The notes beneath the pieces were generated by a model. It did not search any database. It saw only the letters and a list, made by a program, of their open reading frames with translations, and was not told the DNA's origin. From Bacteroidota bacterium (GTDB lineage Bacteria; Bacteroidota; Bacteroidia; J057): 25,591 nucleotides of DNA. The position numbers and the translations under genes are program-made. Location of the stretch: positions 1-25,591 of the forward strand of contig JBCDBC010000001.1 of the NCBI GenBank assembly GCA_039184535.1. The letters are read 5' to 3'. Position 1 is the stretch's first letter; every line of letters begins with the position of its first letter. This document shows, one piece after another, positions 3,955-22,864 of the stretch.

Positions 3955-4004
3955 TTTAGCTCTTACTAGCTTGGGGTTTAAACCCCAAGCTAGTAAGAGC
4001 TAAA
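3955..4004. repeat. Perfect 50-bp palindrome (REP-like; probable bidirectional terminator)
   Basis: TTTAGCTCTTACTAGCTTGGGGTTT|AAACCCCAAGCTAGTAAGAGCTAAA has 25-bp arms and no spacer. It lies between convergent genes. A partial copy occurs at 4031-4045. Confidence 0.9.
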
Positions 4005-5839: not shown

Positions 5840-7213
<1,374 letters not shown>

Positions 7214-9460: not shown

Positions 9461-9495
9461 CTCCCTTTGCTAAATGGTAAAGGGAGTTTTTGTTT
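9461..9495 (+). terminator. Intrinsic terminator after the lipoprotein gene
   Basis: CTCCCTTTGC-TAAATG-GTAAAGGGAG forms a 10-bp stem with one G:U pair and is followed by TTTTTGTTT. Confidence 0.85.
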
Positions 9496-14442: not shown

Positions 14443-15150
14443 ATGAGATGCTTAGTTATTGATGATGAGCCATTAGCCATAGAGATTCTGGCTCGCTTTA
14501 TAAAGAAAGTTCCCTTTCTGGAACTGGTAGAAACATTTGAGAATGCAGTAGAGGCATCTACCTACTTACAGCATGATAAGGTAGATCTTCTCTTTTTGGA
14601 CGTGCAAATGCCCGACCTGAATGGACTACAACTACTCCAATCTCTCTCAGAGAAACCATTAGTGATATTCACTTCTGCCTATTCTCAGTATGCTTTAGAG
14701 AGCTATTCTCTGGATGCAGTAGACTATCTCTTAAAGCCCATACTATTTGAGCGTTTCTTAAAAGCAGTCAATAAAGCTCAGAAGCTCCATCAACTCCAGG
14801 CACCCGGTTCAGAGATTATTGGAGAAGAGGATGACTTTATCTTCATTAAGTCAGACACTCGCTATTTTAAGATTAACTATGCTGATATTCAGTACATAGA
14901 AGGGATGAGGGACTATGTAGCTGTCCACACGCCGGGGCAGAAGATTCTCACCCTGATGAGCATGACCAATATGCTGGATAATCTTCCGTCGGGTGATTTC
15001 ATGCGGGTCCACAAATCTTATATAGTAGGACTTAAGCATATTTCCATGGTTCAGCATAATCGTATCAAAATTGGAGAGAAGGAAATACCTGTGAGCAACA
15101 CCTACAAGGAAGGCTTAATGAAGTACATTGAGAATAGAGGAACCCATTGA
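14443..15150 (+). CDS. LytTR-family response regulator
   Basis: Receiver domain (IDDE, FLDVQMP, DYLLKP) and LytTR domain (IEGMRDYV, FMRVHKSYIV). It starts 1 nt after the kinase stop codon (TAA-C-ATG). Confidence 0.95.
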   Translation: MRCLVIDDEPLAIEILARFIKKVPFLELVETFENAVEASTYLQHDKVDLLFLDVQMPDLNGLQLLQSLSEKPLVIFTSAYSQYALESYSLDAVDYLLKPILFERFLKAVNKAQKLHQLQAPGSEIIGEEDDFIFIKSDTRYFKINYADIQYIEGMRDYVAVHTPGQKILTLMSMTNMLDNLPSGDFMRVHKSYIVGLKHISMVQHNRIKIGEKEIPVSNTYKEGLMKYIENRGTH

Positions 15151-15214
15151 TTTGCCCTTCTTAATTATGAGCCTGAAAATAAAAACCTAAAAAGAATGTA
15201 AAATTTTCATTTCT

Positions 15215-15246
15215 TTTGGACATTCTAATAAAATACTTCATATTTG
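15215..15246 (+). promoter_or_regulatory. Predicted sigma-A promoter of the ilv operon
   Basis: TTTG (15215-15218), a 20-nt spacer, then CATATTTG (15239-15246). This matches the Bacteroidota TTTG-N19-21-TAnnTTTG consensus with one mismatch. Confidence 0.6.
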
Positions 15247-15250
15247 ATCA

Positions 15251-15266
15251 CGCTAAATTTTTAGCG
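15251..15266. promoter_or_regulatory. Palindrome at the predicted transcription start (operator or 5' hairpin)
   Basis: CGCTAAA-TT-TTTAGCG has perfect 7-bp arms and begins 4 nt after the -7 element. Confidence 0.5.
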
Positions 15267-15289
15267 CAAATAATATTGATAACTAATTC

Positions 15290-15343
15290 ATGATAGTCGT
15301 CTCTCAAATTCTGGGTATTCTAGTGCTCGTCTTTAGAAAGTGA
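15290..15343 (+). CDS. ilv operon leader (attenuator) peptide MIVVSQILGILVLVFRK
   Basis: ATG ATA GTC GTC TCT CAA ATT CTG GGT ATT CTA GTG CTC GTC TTT AGA AAG TGA. Ten of 17 codons are Ile (3), Leu (3) or Val (4). It lies between the promoter and the first ilv gene. Confidence 0.85.
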   Translation: MIVVSQILGILVLVFRK

Positions 15344-15404
15344 GGGTGGCTATATTTATACAATCTTTTATTGAAGCCATCCTCGATAACGAGGATGGCT
15401 TCAA
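15342..15404 (+). promoter_or_regulatory. Attenuator: antiterminator segment plus 15-bp hairpin
   Basis: The hairpin TTGAAGCCATCCTCG-ATAA-CGAGGATGGCTTCAA spans 15371-15404. GAGGGTGGCT (15342-15351) can alternatively pair with AGCCATCCTC (15375-15384), giving 10 bp with one G:U. Confidence 0.8.
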
Positions 15405-15439
15405 GCTTAATAGGACACTGTATTCGCAACTAGTTCAAG

Positions 15440-16327
15440 ATGAAACAGATCGGGAACATAGTATTCTGGGACCAAAAGTTTATCAATGCTGATCAGGCTT
15501 CTGTGTCAGTCTGGACCCAGTCCCTTCAATTTGGGAATAGTGTCTTTGAGGGCATAAGATCCTATGATACCGCCGCAGGACCGCGTTTATTCAAGGTAAG
15601 AGAACATTATAAGCGCTTTTTGCATTCCTCTAAAAGCGTAGGACTCAATGTCCCCTACAGCCTTGAGCAGCTAATAGAGATTTCCTATGAGCTTCTACAG
15701 AAAAACGGGTTTACGGATGCCTTCGTAAAACCCCTCCTTATTTCAGATCCAGGAACTAACCTGATGGAGAGTGATAAAGCACAGCTATGCATCATGGTGA
15801 AAGAATGGATACCTGAGCTGGAACTCAGACCCTCTTCACTGGCCATATCACGAATTCAGAAGCCGGACCCTGCCTCTCAAATCCAGGACGCAAAGATCTG
15901 CGGCCAGTATATTCATTCCCTGATGGCTACTACGGAAGCTGGGAAAAGAGGCTTTGATGATGCCATATTACTGGATAACAACGGCTATGTATCTGAGGCT
16001 TCTACTGCCAATATCTTTTTTGAGAAGGATGAGGTATTGTATACTCCACCTTGTGGGCATATTCTGCCTGGCATTACCAGACAAACAGTTATTGACCTTG
16101 CCAGAGAGCTGGATATCAGTTTGAGTGAGCGATTCATTACACCTGAATTTATGCTGGAAGCAGATTCAGCCTTTTTGACAAGCACTACCTTAGAGGTTTG
16201 TCCCATTGATAAAATTGAGAACCAGACACTTCCTCTTCAGTGGGAGGAAAGCGTAGGCTATATGATAGCTGAGAAATATAGAAAATTGACAACTGAACGA
16301 GATAACTTTCATTTTACAGTTATCTAA
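15440..16327 (+). CDS. ilvE: PLP fold-type IV aminotransferase, IlvE-like with divergent specificity residues
   Basis: Retains VFEGIR, HxxR59, the catalytic Lys152 (AKICGQY), Glu186 and ILPGITR, and is the first gene of the ilv operon. Several BCAT-defining residues differ (see findings), so the symbol is provisional. Confidence 0.7.
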   Translation: MKQIGNIVFWDQKFINADQASVSVWTQSLQFGNSVFEGIRSYDTAAGPRLFKVREHYKRFLHSSKSVGLNVPYSLEQLIEISYELLQKNGFTDAFVKPLLISDPGTNLMESDKAQLCIMVKEWIPELELRPSSLAISRIQKPDPASQIQDAKICGQYIHSLMATTEAGKRGFDDAILLDNNGYVSEASTANIFFEKDEVLYTPPCGHILPGITRQTVIDLARELDISLSERFITPEFMLEADSAFLTSTTLEVCPIDKIENQTLPLQWEESVGYMIAEKYRKLTTERDNFHFTVI

Positions 16328-16354
16328 GACTAACAAGAAGAAGGGCGACTACCC

Positions 16355-18037
16355 ATGAGTGAGAACAAATACAGCAAAACTATTACCCAGAGTGATTCGC
16401 AGCCAGCCTCACAGGCCATGCTACATGCCATAGGGTTGACGGATGATGATCTGAAGAAGGCGCAGGTAGGGATAGTAAGTACAGGTTATGAAGGCAATCC
16501 CTGTAATATGCACCTGAACGGACTGGCCACTCAGGTAAAGAAAGGGGTACATGAGGCAGGCTTACTCGGACTTATTTTTCACACCATAGGAGTAAGTGAC
16601 GGGATCAGTATGGGGACAGCCGGGATGAGGTATTCACTCCCTTCAAGAGACATAATCGCAGACTCAATAGAAACTGTAGTTCAGGCCCAATGGTACGATG
16701 CTGTTATACCTGTTGTGGGCTGTGATAAAAATATGCCAGGCGCCATGATGGCGCTGGGGAGGCTTAACCGGCCAGGCATCTTAGTATATGGTGGAACCAT
16801 AGCCTCAGGTCGGTACAAGAATCAAAAACTCAACATCGTCTCAGCCTTTGAGGCTTGGGGAGAACACGTAGCTGGCAAAATCTCTAATGAAGACTACAAA
16901 GGAGTCATCCACCATGCTTGCCCAGGTGCAGGTGCCTGCGGAGGGATGTATACCGCTAACACCATGGCCACAGCAATAGAAGCTATGGGAATGGCCCTTC
17001 CCTTTAACTCCTCTAATCCTGCAGTAAGTTCTGAAAAGAAGGCTGAATGTGCCAAACTTGGAGAGGCTATTAAAAGCCTGCTGAAGAATAATATTTGTCC
17101 CAGAGATATCATGACCAAGAAAGCATTTGAGAATGCGCTTACCATGATCATGGCACTAGGAGGATCTACCAATGCCGTTATGCACATGATCGCCATGGCG
17201 AAGGCAGCTGAGGTTTCCATAGACCTTAAGGATATCCAAAGAATCAGTGATAAGACGCCTTTCCTGGCTGATATGAAGCCCAGTGGAAAGTATTTGATGG
17301 AAGACCTGCATGCCGTAGGTGGTACTCCTGGAGTGATGAAGTATATGTTTCAGGAAGGCTATCTGCATGGAGACTGCCTGACAATAACCGGAAAAACCAT
17401 AGCTGAAAATCTGGAAGATGTTCCAGATTTGCGAGAAGGACAGGCAGTCTTTAGACCCATTGCTAATCCACTTAAGAAAACAGGCCACTTACAGATTCTC
17501 TTTGGTAACCTGGCTGAGGATGGAAGCGTGGCTAAAATTACCGGAAAAGAAGGCTTGCGCTTCGAAGGATCTGCCAGAGTATTTGACAGTGAGGTAGCTG
17601 CCAATGAAGCCATAGGAAAAGGTGAAATAAAGGCTGGAGATGTAGTCGTGATCAGATATGAAGGGCCCAAAGGAGGACCGGGAATGCCAGAAATGCTCAA
17701 GCCTACTTCCGCCATCATGGGAGCCGGCTTAGGAGATGATGTAGCACTGATTACAGATGGCAGATTCTCCGGAGGAACACATGGTTTTGTAGTAGGCCAT
17801 ATTACCCCTGAAGCCCAGCTGGGAGGAATGATAGGTTTGCTGGAAGATGGAGATAAGATCATCATAGATGCAGCAAATAACCTCATAGAGGTTGAACTGG
17901 AAGAAGAAGAAATCCAGAACAGAAGGGATGGATGGATACAGCCAGAACTTAAATTCAAAAAAGGAATTCTATATAAATATGCCAAGACAGTATCCACAGC
18001 TTCAGAAGGCTGTGTAACAGATGAGAACCTGAATTAG
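16355..18037 (+). CDS. ilvD: Dihydroxy-acid dehydratase
   Basis: Motifs [54 protein letters not shown] and TDGRFSGG. Confidence 0.98.
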
Positions 18038-18080
18038 CAAGGGAAGCAAAGGAAATTTTTATTACTTAACAATCAATCTC

Positions 18081-19835
18081 ATGTCTACGTTCACCAAAAC
18101 GAGAGAAAACGCGGGGGAAGATTCATCCCAGCATCAGTTGAAAACGGTAAGTGGGGCAGAAGCTGTCATTCTGTCTCTGATAGAAGAAGGCGTGGATACC
18201 GTCTTTGGCTATCCAGGTGGTGCCATTATGCCGGTCTATGATGCACTGTATGATTACAGAGATAAGATTAATCATATCCTGGTGAGACATGAGCAAGGAG
18301 CTACCCACGCTGCTCAAGGCTACTCCAGGGCTAATAACCGCACAGGTGTATGTATTGCTACCTCCGGACCTGGTGCTACCAACCTGGTTACAGGTATAGC
18401 AGATGCGCAGATAGACTCTACACCCATGGTGTGTATCACAGGACAGGTTCCCAGTCATCTACTAGGTACTGATGCCTTCCAGGAGACGGATGTGATTAGT
18501 ATGACCATGGCCGTTACCAAAGCCAACTTCCAGATCACACGTGCAGAAGAGGTCCCTGAAGTCATGGCTAAGGCCTTCTACATTGCCAATTCTGGTCGTC
18601 CCGGTCCGGTAGTAGTAGATATCTGTAAGGATGCAGAGAATGGAACCCTGAAATTTGAGTACAAGCCTTGCAAAAACATTAGAAGTTACATTCCTGTTCC
18701 GGAAACAGATCCTAAGATGCTTGATGAGGCGGTTAAGCTCATAAATGAAGCCAAGAAGCCTTTCATTCTGGCTGGACATGGAATTCTGATCTCGGAAGCA
18801 GAGCAGGAGTTTCTTGAGTTTGTAGAGAAATCCGGTATACCCGTAGGATGTACCCTACAGGGACTATCCTGCATCCCGACCAATCATCCTCTGTATAAGG
18901 GAATGCTCGGGATGCATGGAAACTATGGGCCTAATATCAAGACCAATGAGTGTGATGTCCTTATAGCTGTAGGAATGCGCTTTGATGACAGGGTAACAGG
19001 AAATGTAAATAAGTATGCCAAGCAGGCAAAAGTCATCCACATTGAAATAGACAAGGCAGAGATCAATAAAAATGTATACGCCCATGTCCCCCTACTGGGA
19101 GATGCAAAGGTGGTACTGGAACAACTTACGCCCAGGCTAGAGAAAAAGACCTACCCAGACTGGTTAGCTGAATTTGAAGTGTGTGAGAAAGAGGAATTTG
19201 AGAAAGTCATTAAGACAGACATAAATCCTGAATCAGACATGATTCATATGGGAGAAGTGGTAAACATGATTTCTAAAATGACGGAAGGAAAGGCCATCAT
19301 CGTGGCAGATGTAGGTCAGCACCAAATGGCAGCAGCACGCTACTATGATTACTTGGAGCATGATAGCTGGATTTCTTCCGGAGGACTGGGGACCATGGGT
19401 TTTGCGTTACCAGCCGCATTTGGAGCTAAACTGGCTAAGCCTGAAAGAGAGGTAGTTGCCATTATAGGAGATGGGGCCTTTCAAATGACCCTACAGGAAT
19501 TGGGCTGTCTTTCTCAGCATGATGTGAGAGTGAAGGTAGTCATCCTAAATAACCATTTTCTGGGGATGGTAAGACAGTGGCAGCAGCTCTTCTTTGACAG
19601 AAGATATTCTTTCACAGAATTAACCAACCCTGACTTTGTGAAGATAGCGGAAGGCTTTGGCGTTTCAGGTCAACAGGTAATGGAAAGGAAAGAATTGGAA
19701 GATTCTCTCAAGAAGATGCTGGACTTTCAGGGACCTTACCTGCTGGATATTAGGGTAGAGAAAGAAGCTAATATTTTCCCAATGGTTCCTGCTGGAGCCG
19801 GTATTTCAGATATTTTATTAGAGCCTGCACAGTAA
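18081..19835 (+). CDS. ilvB: Acetolactate synthase large subunit (biosynthetic)
   Basis: Motifs [43 protein letters not shown] and the ThDP motif GDGAFQM...NN. Confidence 0.97.
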
Positions 19836-19841
19836 ACAATC

Positions 19842-20387
19842 ATGGAAAAATTATATACCATCTCCATCTTTACGGAGAACGAACCCGGATTACTTCACCG
19901 GATAACCACAGTTTTCACCAGAAGACACGTGAACCTAGAAAGCTTTACCGCTTCCCAGACCAAAGTGGAAAGCATTTACCGCTTTACTATAGTGGTAAAA
20001 ATGTCTTATGAGCGGGTGATCAAGATTGTTAAGCAACTGGATAAGATCATTGGGGTATTTAATGCCTTTCTGCATCAGGAGGAAGATGTGGTCCATCAGG
20101 AAGTAGCGCTTTATAAGCTCCCAACTCATACACTGGTTAATGGGAAGATAGAAGAGATCATGCGGGAGAATGGTGGAAGAATTCTCTCTGTAGAGCCAGA
20201 CTTTCTGGTCATTGAGAAAACGGGTAAGCATAATGAGACTCAGGATTTCCTGGAAAAGCTACAGCCATATGGGGTCCTTGAATTTGCCCGTTCAGGTCTG
20301 GTAGCAGTCATGAAAAGGAATTATAGTTTGGAAAAATATATCAGAAAAGATCCTGAAGAGCAGGTAGAAGCAGAAGCTAAAGCCTAA
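19842..20387 (+). CDS. ilvN: Acetolactate synthase small (regulatory) subunit
   Basis: ACT domain 'ENEPGLLHRITTVFTRRHVNLES' and C-terminal 'LEFARSG'. It lies directly after ilvB. Confidence 0.93.
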   Translation: MEKLYTISIFTENEPGLLHRITTVFTRRHVNLESFTASQTKVESIYRFTIVVKMSYERVIKIVKQLDKIIGVFNAFLHQEEDVVHQEVALYKLPTHTLVNGKIEEIMRENGGRILSVEPDFLVIEKTGKHNETQDFLEKLQPYGVLEFARSGLVAVMKRNYSLEKYIRKDPEEQVEAEAKA

Positions 20388-20447
20388 GTAAGGATACTGA
20401 TTGAAAATTAATCATCTTACAAATTCAACCTAAGCACTCAAAGGAAC

Positions 20448-21491
20448 ATGGCAAAAATCAATTTTGGAGGGGTAATCGAAGATGTGGTTACACGAGAAGA
20501 ATTTCCCCTGGAAAAAGCCCTGGAGGTATTAAAAGACGAAACTATCGCCATCATAGGATATGGAGTACAGGGACCCGGACAGGCGCTTAATATGCGTGAT
20601 AATGGGTTTAATGTCATTGTGGGCCAAAGACAGCCTTCCAAGTCATATGACAAAGCGGTAAAAGACGGGTGGGTTCCCGGAGAAACCCTGTTTTCCATAG
20701 AAGAGGCCCTAGAAAAAGGGACAGTCATCTTCTATTTGCTGTCAGACGCCGGTCAGATTCACCTTTGGCCTACAGTCAAGAAGCACCTGACGCCTGGAAA
20801 GACGCTCTATTTCTCACACGGATTTGGGGTGACTTATAAGGACCAAACAGGCATCATACCTCCTGAAGGGGTAGATGTAGTACTGGTGGCTCCTAAAGGT
20901 TCTGGAACCAGCTTGAGAAGACTGTTTGTAGCAGGTGAAGGATTAAACTCCAGCTATGCTATCTTCCAGGATGCTACTGGAAATGCTAAAGAAAGAGTGA
21001 TGGCTATCGGAATCGGAATTGGTTCAGGTTATCTGTTTGAAACTACTTTTGAGAAAGAAGTTTTCAGTGACCTTACCGGAGAAAGAGGAATCCTGATGGG
21101 AGCCCTGGCCGGTGTCATGGAAGCCCAGTATGATCTTCTGCGTAAGAAAGGACATTCTCCTTCTGAGGCCTTCAATGAAACCGTTGAGGAACTTACGCAG
21201 TCTTTGATCCGTCTGGTAGCAGAAAACGGCATGGACTGGATGTACGCTAACTGCTCTACCACTGCTCAGAGAGGAGCTTTGGATTGGAGACATAAGTTCC
21301 GTGATGCTACAGTTCCTGTATTTGAAGAGCTGTATGAAAGTGTAGCTACAGGAAACGAGGCCAGAATTACCATAGAGGCTAACCAAAGAGCTGACTATAG
21401 AGAAAAACTGGAAGAAGAACTGTCTGAGATCCATAATTCTGAGATGTGGCAGGCTGGTGCAGCAGTGAGAAAACTGCGTCCTTCCAAGTAA
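20448..21491 (+). CDS. ilvC: Ketol-acid reductoisomerase
   Basis: Motifs IGYGVQG, LSDAGQ, FSHGF, VAPKGSG, EVFSDLTGERGILMG, EAFNETVEE and CSTTAQRGA. Confidence 0.97.
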   Translation: MAKINFGGVIEDVVTREEFPLEKALEVLKDETIAIIGYGVQGPGQALNMRDNGFNVIVGQRQPSKSYDKAVKDGWVPGETLFSIEEALEKGTVIFYLLSDAGQIHLWPTVKKHLTPGKTLYFSHGFGVTYKDQTGIIPPEGVDVVLVAPKGSGTSLRRLFVAGEGLNSSYAIFQDATGNAKERVMAIGIGIGSGYLFETTFEKEVFSDLTGERGILMGALAGVMEAQYDLLRKKGHSPSEAFNETVEELTQSLIRLVAENGMDWMYANCSTTAQRGALDWRHKFRDATVPVFEELYESVATGNEARITIEANQRADYREKLEEELSEIHNSEMWQAGAAVRKLRPSK

Positions 21492-21510
21492 TGTTACCCT
21501 ATATTTTGAT

Positions 21511-21546
21511 ACACATTATTTCCCCAACTTCGGGGAAGTAATGTGT
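21511..21546 (+). terminator. Intercistronic hairpin between ilvC and ilvA (terminator-like or mRNA-stabilizing)
   Basis: ACACATTATTTCCCC-AACTTC-GGGGAAGTAATGTGT forms a 15-bp stem with one G:U pair and is followed by the pyrimidine-rich TCCTATTCTCTCTTT. Confidence 0.6.
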
Positions 21547-21583
21547 TCCTATTCTCTCTTTGACTGGAGAGAGTAACCTAATC

Positions 21584-22864
21584 ATGGCGGGACCTGATCT
21601 TATGACTTCTACTAAAACCAAAATGTTACCCCCTTCACTCATAGTGAAGGCCAGACAGCGCTTATCAGAGGTAGCTGAATCTACTCCTTTGATGTATAAT
21701 CATAACCTGTCAAACAAGTTTGGTTGCCATGTATGGCTGAAAAGGGAAGACTTACAGGTGGTAAGGTCATATAAAATCAGAGGCGCATTTAATCGCATGA
21801 GCTCTCTGAGTCAGGAAGAGCGACAAAAGGGAGTCATCTGCTCCAGTGCAGGAAACCATGCACAAGGAGTAGCCCTCAGCTGCTATGAACTAGGCATACA
21901 CGGTAAAATCTTTATGCCCATCACCACCCCTCGTCAGAAGGTGGATAAGGTCAAAATGTTTGGGCAGGACAAAGTAGAAGTTTTCCTAGTAGGGGATACC
22001 TATGATGACTCCTATGACGCCGCCATGCAAGAGCTGGAAAGGAGTGGGAGCATATTCATTCATCCCTTTGATGATGAGGCTATCATAGCAGGGCAGGGGA
22101 CCGTAGGCATGGAAATCCTCAGAGATGCCAAGCAAACCATGGATTTCATCTTCCTGGGTATAGGCGGAGGAGGACTAGCCGCAGGGGTAGGAAGCTATAT
22201 CAAGCAACTAAGTCCAGAGACCAAGATCATAGGGGTAGAGCCAGCCGGAGCCCCTTCCATGAAAATTTCTCTTGAAAAGGGAGAAGTAGTAACCCTGGAT
22301 GAGATAGACAAGTTTGTGGATGGAGCTGCTGTACGTAAAGTAGGTAGCCTGACCTTTTCTATTTGTCAGGAGGTGATAGATGACATAATTCTCGTGCCGG
22401 AAGGTAAAGCCTGTAGTACCATTCTCCAGTTATACAATGAGGAAGCCATTGTAGTGGAGCCAGCCGGAGCCTTAAGCATAGCCTGCCTGGAGTTCTACAG
22501 GGAGCAGATCAAAGGAAAGCATGTGGTCTGCATAGTAAGCGGAAGTAATAATGATATTACCCGTACGGAAGAAATCAAGGAAAGGTCTCTGCTGTATGAA
22601 GGCCTGAAGCACTACTTCATCGTAAACTTCCCACAGAGAGCAGGGGCCCTAAGAGAGTTTCTTACGAATGTCCTGGGACCGAATGATGACATTACCCGCT
22701 TTGAGTATATCAAGAAGAACAACAGGGAGAATGCACCTGCCTTAATTGGGATAGAATTGCAGGATAAGGAGGACTATGAGGGACTCATCCAGAGAATGGA
22801 TAAGTTTACTGTCCAATACCAGATCGTGAATGACGATCCTACCTTATTTAATCTATTTGTTTGA
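21584..22864 (+). CDS. ilvA: Threonine ammonia-lyase, biosynthetic (short form with one ACT-like domain)
   Basis: Motifs LKREDLQ..RSYKIRGA (PLP Lys), SAGNHAQG, GIGGGGL, EPAGA, SGSNND and the regulatory 'FPQRAGALREF'. The start is uncertain: TTG 21560, ATG 21584 or ATG 21602. Confidence 0.96.
   Translation: MAGPDLMTSTKTKMLPPSLIVKARQRLSEVAESTPLMYNHNLSNKFGCHVWLKREDLQVVRSYKIRGAFNRMSSLSQEERQKGVICSSAGNHAQGVALSCYELGIHGKIFMPITTPRQKVDKVKMFGQDKVEVFLVGDTYDDSYDAAMQELERSGSIFIHPFDDEAIIAGQGTVGMEILRDAKQTMDFIFLGIGGGGLAAGVGSYIKQLSPETKIIGVEPAGAPSMKISLEKGEVVTLDEIDKFVDGAAVRKVGSLTFSICQEVIDDIILVPEGKACSTILQLYNEEAIVVEPAGALSIACLEFYREQIKGKHVVCIVSGSNNDITRTEEIKERSLLYEGLKHYFIVNFPQRAGALREFLTNVLGPNDDITRFEYIKKNNRENAPALIGIELQDKEDYEGLIQRMDKFTVQYQIVNDDPTLFNLFV

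Follow-up and report, generated by a model that had tools for sequence, protein, structure and literature searches.

The region upstream of the ilvE-like/ilvDBNCA operon in this Bacteroidota genome is very probably a ribosome-mediated (leader-peptide) transcription attenuator of that operon. This reading is strongly supported since the whole arrangement is conserved across the family, the phylum and metagenomes, and it gains further support from the substitution pattern in close relatives and from covariation in both helices. The earlier note, made from the sequence alone, had proposed such an attenuator. Its leader and its fold switch were upheld by conservation and covariation, whereas a U-tract terminator was not evident in the sequence of the locus itself.

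Leader ORF, predicted promoter and operon

The window, that is the whole stretch of 25,591 nucleotides analysed here, stems from a marine metagenome assembly of 6.35 Mb which is 78% complete and fragmented. The closest IlvD relatives of this source genome are found in Chitinophagales/Saprospiraceae MAGs. Among the sequencing runs searched, those that contain this DNA were DNA runs, and none was an RNA run. The following features delimit the leader, its predicted promoter and the regulated operon.

15195-15246, forward strand: predicted promoter block (TTTG, spacer, CATATTTG), conserved in the same-genus genome G002
15290-15343, forward strand: leader ORF, from the sequence read and homologous ILV-rich ORFs in family, phylum and metagenomes
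15440-22864, forward strand: regulated operon, ilvE-like followed by ilvD-B-N-C-A (NCBIfam)
15440-16327, forward strand: ilvE-like aminotransferase gene (NCBIfam, below cut-off)
16355-18037, forward strand: ilvD (NCBIfam, above curated cut-off)
18081-19835, forward strand: ilvB (NCBIfam, above curated cut-off)
19842-20387, forward strand: ilvN (NCBIfam, above curated cut-off)
20448-21491, forward strand: ilvC (NCBIfam, above curated cut-off)
21560-22864, forward strand: ilvA (NCBIfam, above curated cut-off)

The leader ORF opens with an ATG at 15290, ends with a TGA at 15341-15343 and encodes the peptide MIVVSQILGILVLVFRK in 17 codons. Since an in-frame TAA lies two codons 5' of this ATG, it is the first possible start; the leader start carries no Shine-Dalgarno sequence. 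Ten of the 17 codons specify Ile, Leu or Val (ILV), the count initially claimed: three Ile (ATA, ATT, ATT), three Leu (CTG, CTA, CTC) and four Val (GTC, GTC, GTG, GTC). Taken by itself this enrichment is modest, with a binomial P of about 6e-3 based on local base composition and of 8e-4 based on proteome frequencies. The run I10-L11-V12-L13-V14 (15317-15331) constitutes the likeliest set of control codons. GTC accounts for three of the four leader Val codons, and CTA and CTC for two of the three Leu codons. These three are among the rarest codons in the genes of the window, with a mild bias, and such little-used codons would sharpen the sensitivity of the leader.

Bacteroidota sigma-A promoters follow the consensus TTTG / TAnnTTTG. 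A motif of this -33/-7 type, picked by eye, was found with TTTG at 15215-15218, a 20-nt spacer and CATATTTG at 15239-15246. The block lies 44 nt 5' of the leader ATG and predicts a transcription start around 15250-15254. Its 52 nt (15195-15246) are 100% identical in G002, a genome in which both flanks of the block have diverged and IlvE is only 78% identical, and motifs resembling CATATTTG occur about 20 nt 5' of the leader ATG in family relatives. An exact-match scan of metagenome contigs with the promoter block gave no match. A scan with sigma-70 and terminator consensus patterns returned no terminator-like site and merely a weak sigma-70-like promoter.

An ilv operon had been postulated downstream of the leader, and the scores of ilvD, ilvB, ilvN, ilvC and ilvA above the NCBIfam curated cut-offs confirmed it. 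The ilvE-like gene reached 240 bits against an NCBIfam cut-off of 279 for branched-chain aminotransferase, and 217 against 245.6 in a further comparison. Its product shows 78-94% identity within the genus and only about 37-44% to the other ilvE homologues of the family. The upstream neighbour of the leader region is a LytTR response-regulator gene (14443-15150).

Alternative folds of the leader transcript

Downstream of the leader ORF, TTGAAGCCATCCTCG (15371-15385) and CGAGGATGGCTTCAA (15390-15404) form a hairpin of 15 perfect pairs around the loop ATAA, with a folding energy of -26.7 kcal/mol (z = -8.2). The box GAGGGTGGCT at 15342-15351 shares two bases with the leader stop TGA and is complementary, one G-U pair included, to AGCCATCCTC (15375-15384) within the hairpin 5' arm. 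The overlap with the stop and the complementarity asserted in the earlier note could thus be read exactly. The alternative helix, 15341-15351 with 15375-15385, comprises 11 pairs (-16.5 kcal/mol, z = -3.6). Because both structures use 15375-15385, antiterminator and hairpin are mutually exclusive, and on this point too folding agreed with what had been proposed.

The minimum free energy (MFE) fold of the whole leader (-58.8 kcal/mol, z = -6.4) contained in addition a helix between 15293-15306 and 15341-15354, by which leader codons 2-6 are able to pair with the stop region in the manner of a classical '1:2' helix. As the 1:2, 2:3 and 3:4 helices are all possible, the leader region contains the classical four segments, listed here with a further small hairpin.

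15251-15266, forward strand: small 5'-proximal hairpin CGCUAA/UUAGCG in the leader transcript (MFE fold)
15293-15306, forward strand: segment 1, AUAGUCGUCUCUCA, leader codons 2-6, pairing with segment 2 (MFE fold)
15341-15354, forward strand: segment 2, antiterminator 5' strand UGAGGGUGGCUAUA, overlapping the TGA stop (folding, family conservation)
15371-15385, forward strand: segment 3, hairpin 5' arm, common to the antiterminator and the terminator-like hairpin (folding, covariation)
15390-15404, forward strand: segment 4, hairpin 3' arm, followed by GCUUAAUAGG (folding, genus comparison)

In the folding model, the helix of segments 1 and 2 would be an anti-antiterminator or a pause helix. 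The hairpin ends 35 nt 5' of the ilvE ATG, which is not sequestered in the fold. The small hairpin at 15251-15266 is weakened in the same-genus contig L118 and absent in G002, hence not conserved, and it is probably incidental. The MFE fold also showed a long-range pairing of 15276-15285 with 15431-15438; this pairing was not evident in G002 and was set aside as chance.

Comparison within the genus

The genus set consisted of the source genome, G001 (truncated within the hairpin by the end of its contig), G002 and L118, a contig from a metagenome. The IlvE of L118 is about 88% identical, and changes in this contig were confined to the 5' UTR, two non-ILV codons (G9S and K17Q), the spacer and the hairpin loop; the ILV codons and segments 1-4 were unchanged in every base. 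The G002 leader peptide, MVVVSLNLSILVLVWKH, likewise has 10 ILV residues out of 17, and its I-L-V-L-V run was kept by way of four synonymous third-base changes (CTA to CTG, GTG to GTA, CTC to CTT and GTC to GTG). The top pair of the G002 hairpin changed from G-C to A-U, a compensatory change on both sides of the stem. Such substitutions would be predicted for a frame that is translated codon by codon and for stems that have to pair.

Segment 1 in G002 was identical save for its last base and A15293, which is replaced by G with the pair to U kept. In more distant relatives this segment was not recognisable, so that it was seen within the genus only.

Comparison across family, phylum and metagenomes

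The family search covered 24 other genomes, 17 of which had a homologue of the ilvE-like gene. At 12 of these 17 loci an ILV-rich ORF, for example MKKLQVIINLIVGVVVSDHEQ, MQTLQIIIIRILLVVLLVPSE or MKIIQVIPLILLIVVVILRL, ends at or just after a box that is complementary to the 5' arm of the following hairpin, and family members share a conserved TGAG-box at the leader stop. In an alignment of 10 sequences (A3), the terminator helix was 91.7% paired, as compared to 27-54% when the partner strand was slid, with compensatory changes in 5 of its 12 pairs; the antiterminator helix was 96.2% paired. One position covaried in three strands, with A/G in the box, U/C in the 5' arm and A/G in the 3' arm. Covariation within the family is limited since the stems are conserved in sequence, and since the genomes are related the counts, which speak for the structure, do not represent independent events. 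The alignment of upstream regions of relatives that had been suggested initially gave conserved ILV-rich upstream ORFs, at the 12 of 17 family loci, and compensatory changes in both helices.

As a null for the box complementarity, a swap of hairpins between family loci was uninformative, the stems being alike, and shuffled windows were used instead. Complementarity was complete (9 of 9 positions) at 7 of 14 loci, as against 0.8% of the shuffled windows.

The leaders of the family mostly start with MK.LQ or MQTLQ (ATGAAA...TTGCAA), as seen in L007, L009, L013, L017, L019 and L020. This start is absent from the genus of the source genome, the leaders of which are also shorter than those of their relatives. 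Five family loci (L008, L009, L013, L014 and L016) carry two tandem hairpin units 60-330 nt 5' of ilvE, the first with a stem of the GCCATTCTC type and the second with one of the GCCTTTCTC type; the second unit of L009 has an ILV-rich mini-ORF of its own, MFSRLFALFLEIILVVVLTGYQGERLSS.

On the level of the phylum, 80 Bacteroidota ilvD loci were searched over 3.1 kb upstream for an ILV-rich mini-ORF with a hairpin within 80 nt. The combination was found at 23 loci in sense and at one in antisense orientation. Represented among these loci are Flavobacteriaceae, Cyclobacteriaceae, Runella, Saprospiraceae and Salibacteraceae, together with an Ignavibacteria MAG. The Flavobacteriaceae show the same geometry with a box and stem of quite different sequence (TGATACAGAC / GCCTGTATCA).

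Metagenome contigs were scanned with the RNA motif alone, that is TGAGRRTGGY, a gap, GCCATYCTC, a loop and GAGRATGGC, leaving the upstream frame unconstrained. Among the 120 matches, 101 had a mini-ORF of 8-45 codons whose stop is the TGA of the motif, and in 92 of these 101 the ILV content was at least 40%. The first gene 3' of the motif was ilvD (long type), ilvE or leuA; where a locus gave no match to the Ilv proteins of the window, leuA (2-isopropylmalate synthase) was found in all four cases checked. By these comparisons, the element belongs to a widespread family of putative ILV leader attenuators, conserved in sequence, that precede branched-chain biosynthesis operons. It shares with the Bacteroidota leaders preceding ilvE, ilvD or leuA the box-hairpin TGAGRRTGGY...GCCATYCTC...GAGRATGGC and an ILV-rich ORF terminated by the TGA of the box. 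Unlike the other members, the genus has the shortest leader, no MK.LQ start and no T-tract, a feature that 111 of the 120 keep.

At the metagenome loci L109-L228, the composition of the leader tracks the first gene, the hairpin sequence being common to both types. Leaders before leuA, such as ..NISILSLIIGIILLI.., contain much Ile and Leu and next to no Val, and those before long-type ilvD, such as ..HILLVVLVLVI.., are rich in Leu and Val.

Proposed mechanism

In trp, ilvGMEDA and ilvBN attenuation, the antiterminator is masked once a ribosome has arrived at the leader stop. In E. coli, the leaders of ilvGMEDA and ilvBN respond in a multivalent way to several aminoacyl-tRNAs. For the present element we propose a corresponding sequence of events. 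Transcription would start about 40 nt 5' of the leader ATG, and a ribosome would translate the 17-codon leader. With Ile-, Leu- and Val-tRNAs all charged, the ribosome would reach the TGA at 15341-15343 and cover segment 2 (15341-15354); once the stop codon occupies the A site, the ribosome is expected to reach about 12 nt further, so that 15341-15353 would be covered. With segment 2 masked, segment 3 would pair with segment 4, and the 15-bp hairpin would stop or strongly reduce transcription into ilvE.

If any of the three charged tRNAs became scarce, the ribosome would stall at the ILV codons, chiefly at the I-L-V-L-V run 15317-15331. As this stall site lies 10-24 nt 5' of segment 2, most or all of segment 2 would stay free and could pair with segment 3 before segment 4 is made; the hairpin would not form and the polymerase would read into the operon. 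In the case of no translation, segment 1 would pair with segment 2 and the hairpin of segments 3 and 4 would form by default. Sensing of Leu by an operon without leu genes, as had been proposed, is unsurprising because IlvB, IlvN, IlvC and IlvD make the leucine precursor 2-ketoisovalerate. The last step of leucine synthesis falls to a transaminase.

The missing U-tract and alternative explanations

Neither the sequence read nor the terminator scan revealed a U-tract after 15404, where the tail is GCUUAAUAGG. A U-tract after the hairpin was also absent in the three closest relatives of the source genome, the tail of the genus being GGCTTCAAGCTTAATAGG with no T-rich run. Among the 120 metagenome motif matches, in contrast, 111 have a T-rich tail, defined as at least 5 T among the first eight bases 3' of the conserved GGC. 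Since no U-tract is present here, we infer termination as the output in this genus from the homologues. We nevertheless think that the U-less hairpin still works, perhaps less efficiently or helped by a factor, because it is stable across four genomes with its stem maintained.

Terminators with a U-tract exist in the same genome, for example at 9461-9486. Among its 318 strong hairpins, 145 had a T-rich tail on one side and about half had none on either side. Some of the U-less ones sit between convergent genes. A survey of the gene context showed that many hairpins classed as lacking U hide a U-tract within the stem or are REP-like palindromes.

A second perfect 15-bp hairpin without U-tract, ACACATTATTTCCCC/GGGGAAGTAATGTGT, is found within the operon at 21511-21546, in the spacer that separates the ilvC stop (21489-21491) from the ilvA start. 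G001 has conserved this hairpin and G002 kept it through compensatory changes, which suggests that hairpins of this kind play some part in the lineage. The sequence AAGTAATGT (21485-21493) overlaps the ilvC stop and repeats part of the 3' arm of this second hairpin; as a candidate 'box' it was only partly kept in G001 and G002, and the resemblance is probably due to chance.

These observations bear on what the hairpin of the leader does. We regard it as rather unlikely that the genus kept the ribosome-sensing switch and swapped the hairpin-plus-U-tract for a long U-less hairpin whose output is U-tract-independent, possibly factor-assisted, termination or RNA processing. A broader version, in which the switch is real and the U-less hairpin of this genus is not a simple intrinsic terminator, appears unlikely to us as well. 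The output might then be a factor-assisted (NusA/NusG- or Rho-type) pause or termination, or the hairpin might set the level of ilv mRNA as an element of RNA processing or stability. Such an output would fit the tail GGCUUCAAGCUUAAUAGG, the most U-poor among genuine ILV-leader homologues, as well as the conservation of a U-less tail in four genomes whose stem was kept by compensatory change. The conserved U-less hairpin between ilvC and ilvA and the lack of a T-rich tail in about half of the genome's strong hairpins, some of them between convergent genes, point in the same direction. However, 111 of the 120 homologues resemble ordinary terminators, so that a weakened version of the same function is the simplest reading. 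Moreover, the distance of the hairpin to the ilvE ATG and the accessibility of that ATG do not favor a different output, and a factor-binding or cleavage site is not readable from the sequence.

Loss of the U-tract could also mean that the element is a decaying relic, an inherited attenuator that no longer terminates in this genus, with the operon constitutive or controlled elsewhere. The short leader without MK.LQ start would agree with such decay, which we nonetheless consider very improbable: the ILV codons, the stop-overlapping box and both hairpin arms are intact in four genomes down to an IlvE identity of 78%, and substitutions fell only in loops, spacers and non-ILV or synonymous positions, whereas decay would have altered stems and codons. 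The chance that the arrangement is a coincidence or serves another function seems close to negligible. The ORF would then be a chance frame or encode a small hydrophobic membrane peptide, and the hairpin would be the terminator of the LytTR gene (14443-15150). ILV-rich peptides do look like membrane segments, the enrichment alone has a P of only about 1e-3 to 6e-3, and the hairpin is the first strong one past the upstream gene. Yet a conserved, predicted promoter block lies between that gene and the leader, 17 residues are too short for a membrane span, and conservation extends to the ILV content and to where the stop lies with respect to the box, but not to the sequence of the peptide. The arrangement furthermore tracks ilvE, ilvD and leuA in many genomes, and the antisense control gave one locus versus 23 in sense. 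Attenuation by the leader peptide thus accounts best for the arrangement as a whole.

Relation to known systems

The element resembles the ilvL (Ile/Leu/Val) and ivbL (Val/Leu) leaders of E. coli/Salmonella in having a short codon-rich ORF before branched-chain genes and mutually exclusive antiterminator and terminator helices, with the antiterminator masked by a ribosome at the stop. Unlike these leaders, with which it shares no sequence similarity, it has a predicted promoter of the Bacteroidota type, no Shine-Dalgarno sequence, a much shorter leader (17 codons) and a hairpin without U-tract, and its operon runs ilvE-like, D, B, N, C, A. With E. coli trpL it has in common the segments 1:2 (default/pause), 2:3 (antiterminator) and 3:4 (terminator), a leader stop adjoining segment 2 and control codons a short distance upstream. 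It differs from trpL in that three amino acids would be sensed and not one, segment 1 is limited to the genus and the U-tract is missing. Bacteroid-trp (RF01692), which presumably holds a Trp-codon mini-ORF and a terminator, is similarly a cis-regulatory RNA motif of Bacteroidetes before amino-acid biosynthesis genes; it concerns another amino acid, belongs to another sequence family and gave no match to the leader region. It has been listed as cis-regulatory and not as a riboswitch (PMC2864571, Table 1).

The search of 14900-15700 with Rfam cmscan at E <= 10 yielded just five chance-level matches to unrelated families. None of the curated Rfam leaders (Leu_leader, Thr_leader, His_leader, Trp_leader, Phe_leader, leu-phe_leader and Bacteroid-trp) matched, nor did the Rfam T-box and riboswitches in 14900-15700. 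The leader peptides of five relatives (20-26 aa) were compared with the NCBIfam models for such peptides (IlvL, IvbL and similar) and matched none of them at E <= 10. The description of the element as unannotated therefore stood, with no Rfam or NCBIfam model found. As of 2010, leader peptides had been demonstrated only in Proteobacteria and Actinobacteria (PMC2965389), and unvalidated leader-like sORFs have been mentioned in B. thetaiotaomicron 5' UTRs (PMC7366714). Our literature search found no experimental study of leader-peptide attenuation or of an ilv leader peptide in Bacteroidota, in agreement with the statement of the earlier note that it knew of none in this phylum. Vitreschak et al. 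reportedly predicted leader-peptide attenuation in 2004, in a work whose abstract is said to name Bacteroidetes/Chlorobi. The element is hence uncatalogued yet mechanistically textbook, and leader-peptide attenuation in Bacteroidota is a mode of control that had been predicted before.

The data add a comparatively supported case to the view that classical leader-peptide attenuation governs branched-chain amino-acid synthesis in Bacteroidota. Bacteroidota do without Shine-Dalgarno-led initiation and have their own promoter type. As the family before ilvE, ilvD and leuA is absent from RNA and protein databases, genome annotation overlooks the mini-gene along with the regulatory logic; with an Rfam-style model of the box-hairpin motif, hundreds of loci would be annotated. 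Having lost the U-tract, the genus offers a small natural experiment on the terminator requirements of Bacteroidota. If U-less hairpins still stop or gate transcription, the locus would lend itself as a natural and switchable system in which to test non-canonical termination in this phylum.

Other sites in the source genome

The whole genome was scanned on both strands for an ATG mini-ORF of 10-40 codons with a stop-overlapping box complementary to a following hairpin, and 254 sites were returned at loose settings. Only one of them had an ILV content of at least 55%, the leader before the ilv operon. With the same detector, no convincing leader for other amino acids was found in this genome, itself 78% complete and fragmented, and its leuCD-leuB cluster had no leader. 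On contig C223 of G000 (6440-6665), the 220-nt spacer between leuD and leuB is full of short tandem repeats of the TCATTCAAAA(T/C)TCAA type. On the same contig leuC is preceded by a gldA-like ABC ATPase gene, with a 100-nt spacer that contains no leader ORF or hairpin.

Long palindromes around AGCTTGGGGTTTAAACCCCAAGCT were observed at 3955-4004 of the window and on the G000 contigs C234, C277, C284, C887, C1256, C239 and C374. They are often intergenic and resemble a REP-like family of dispersed repeats.
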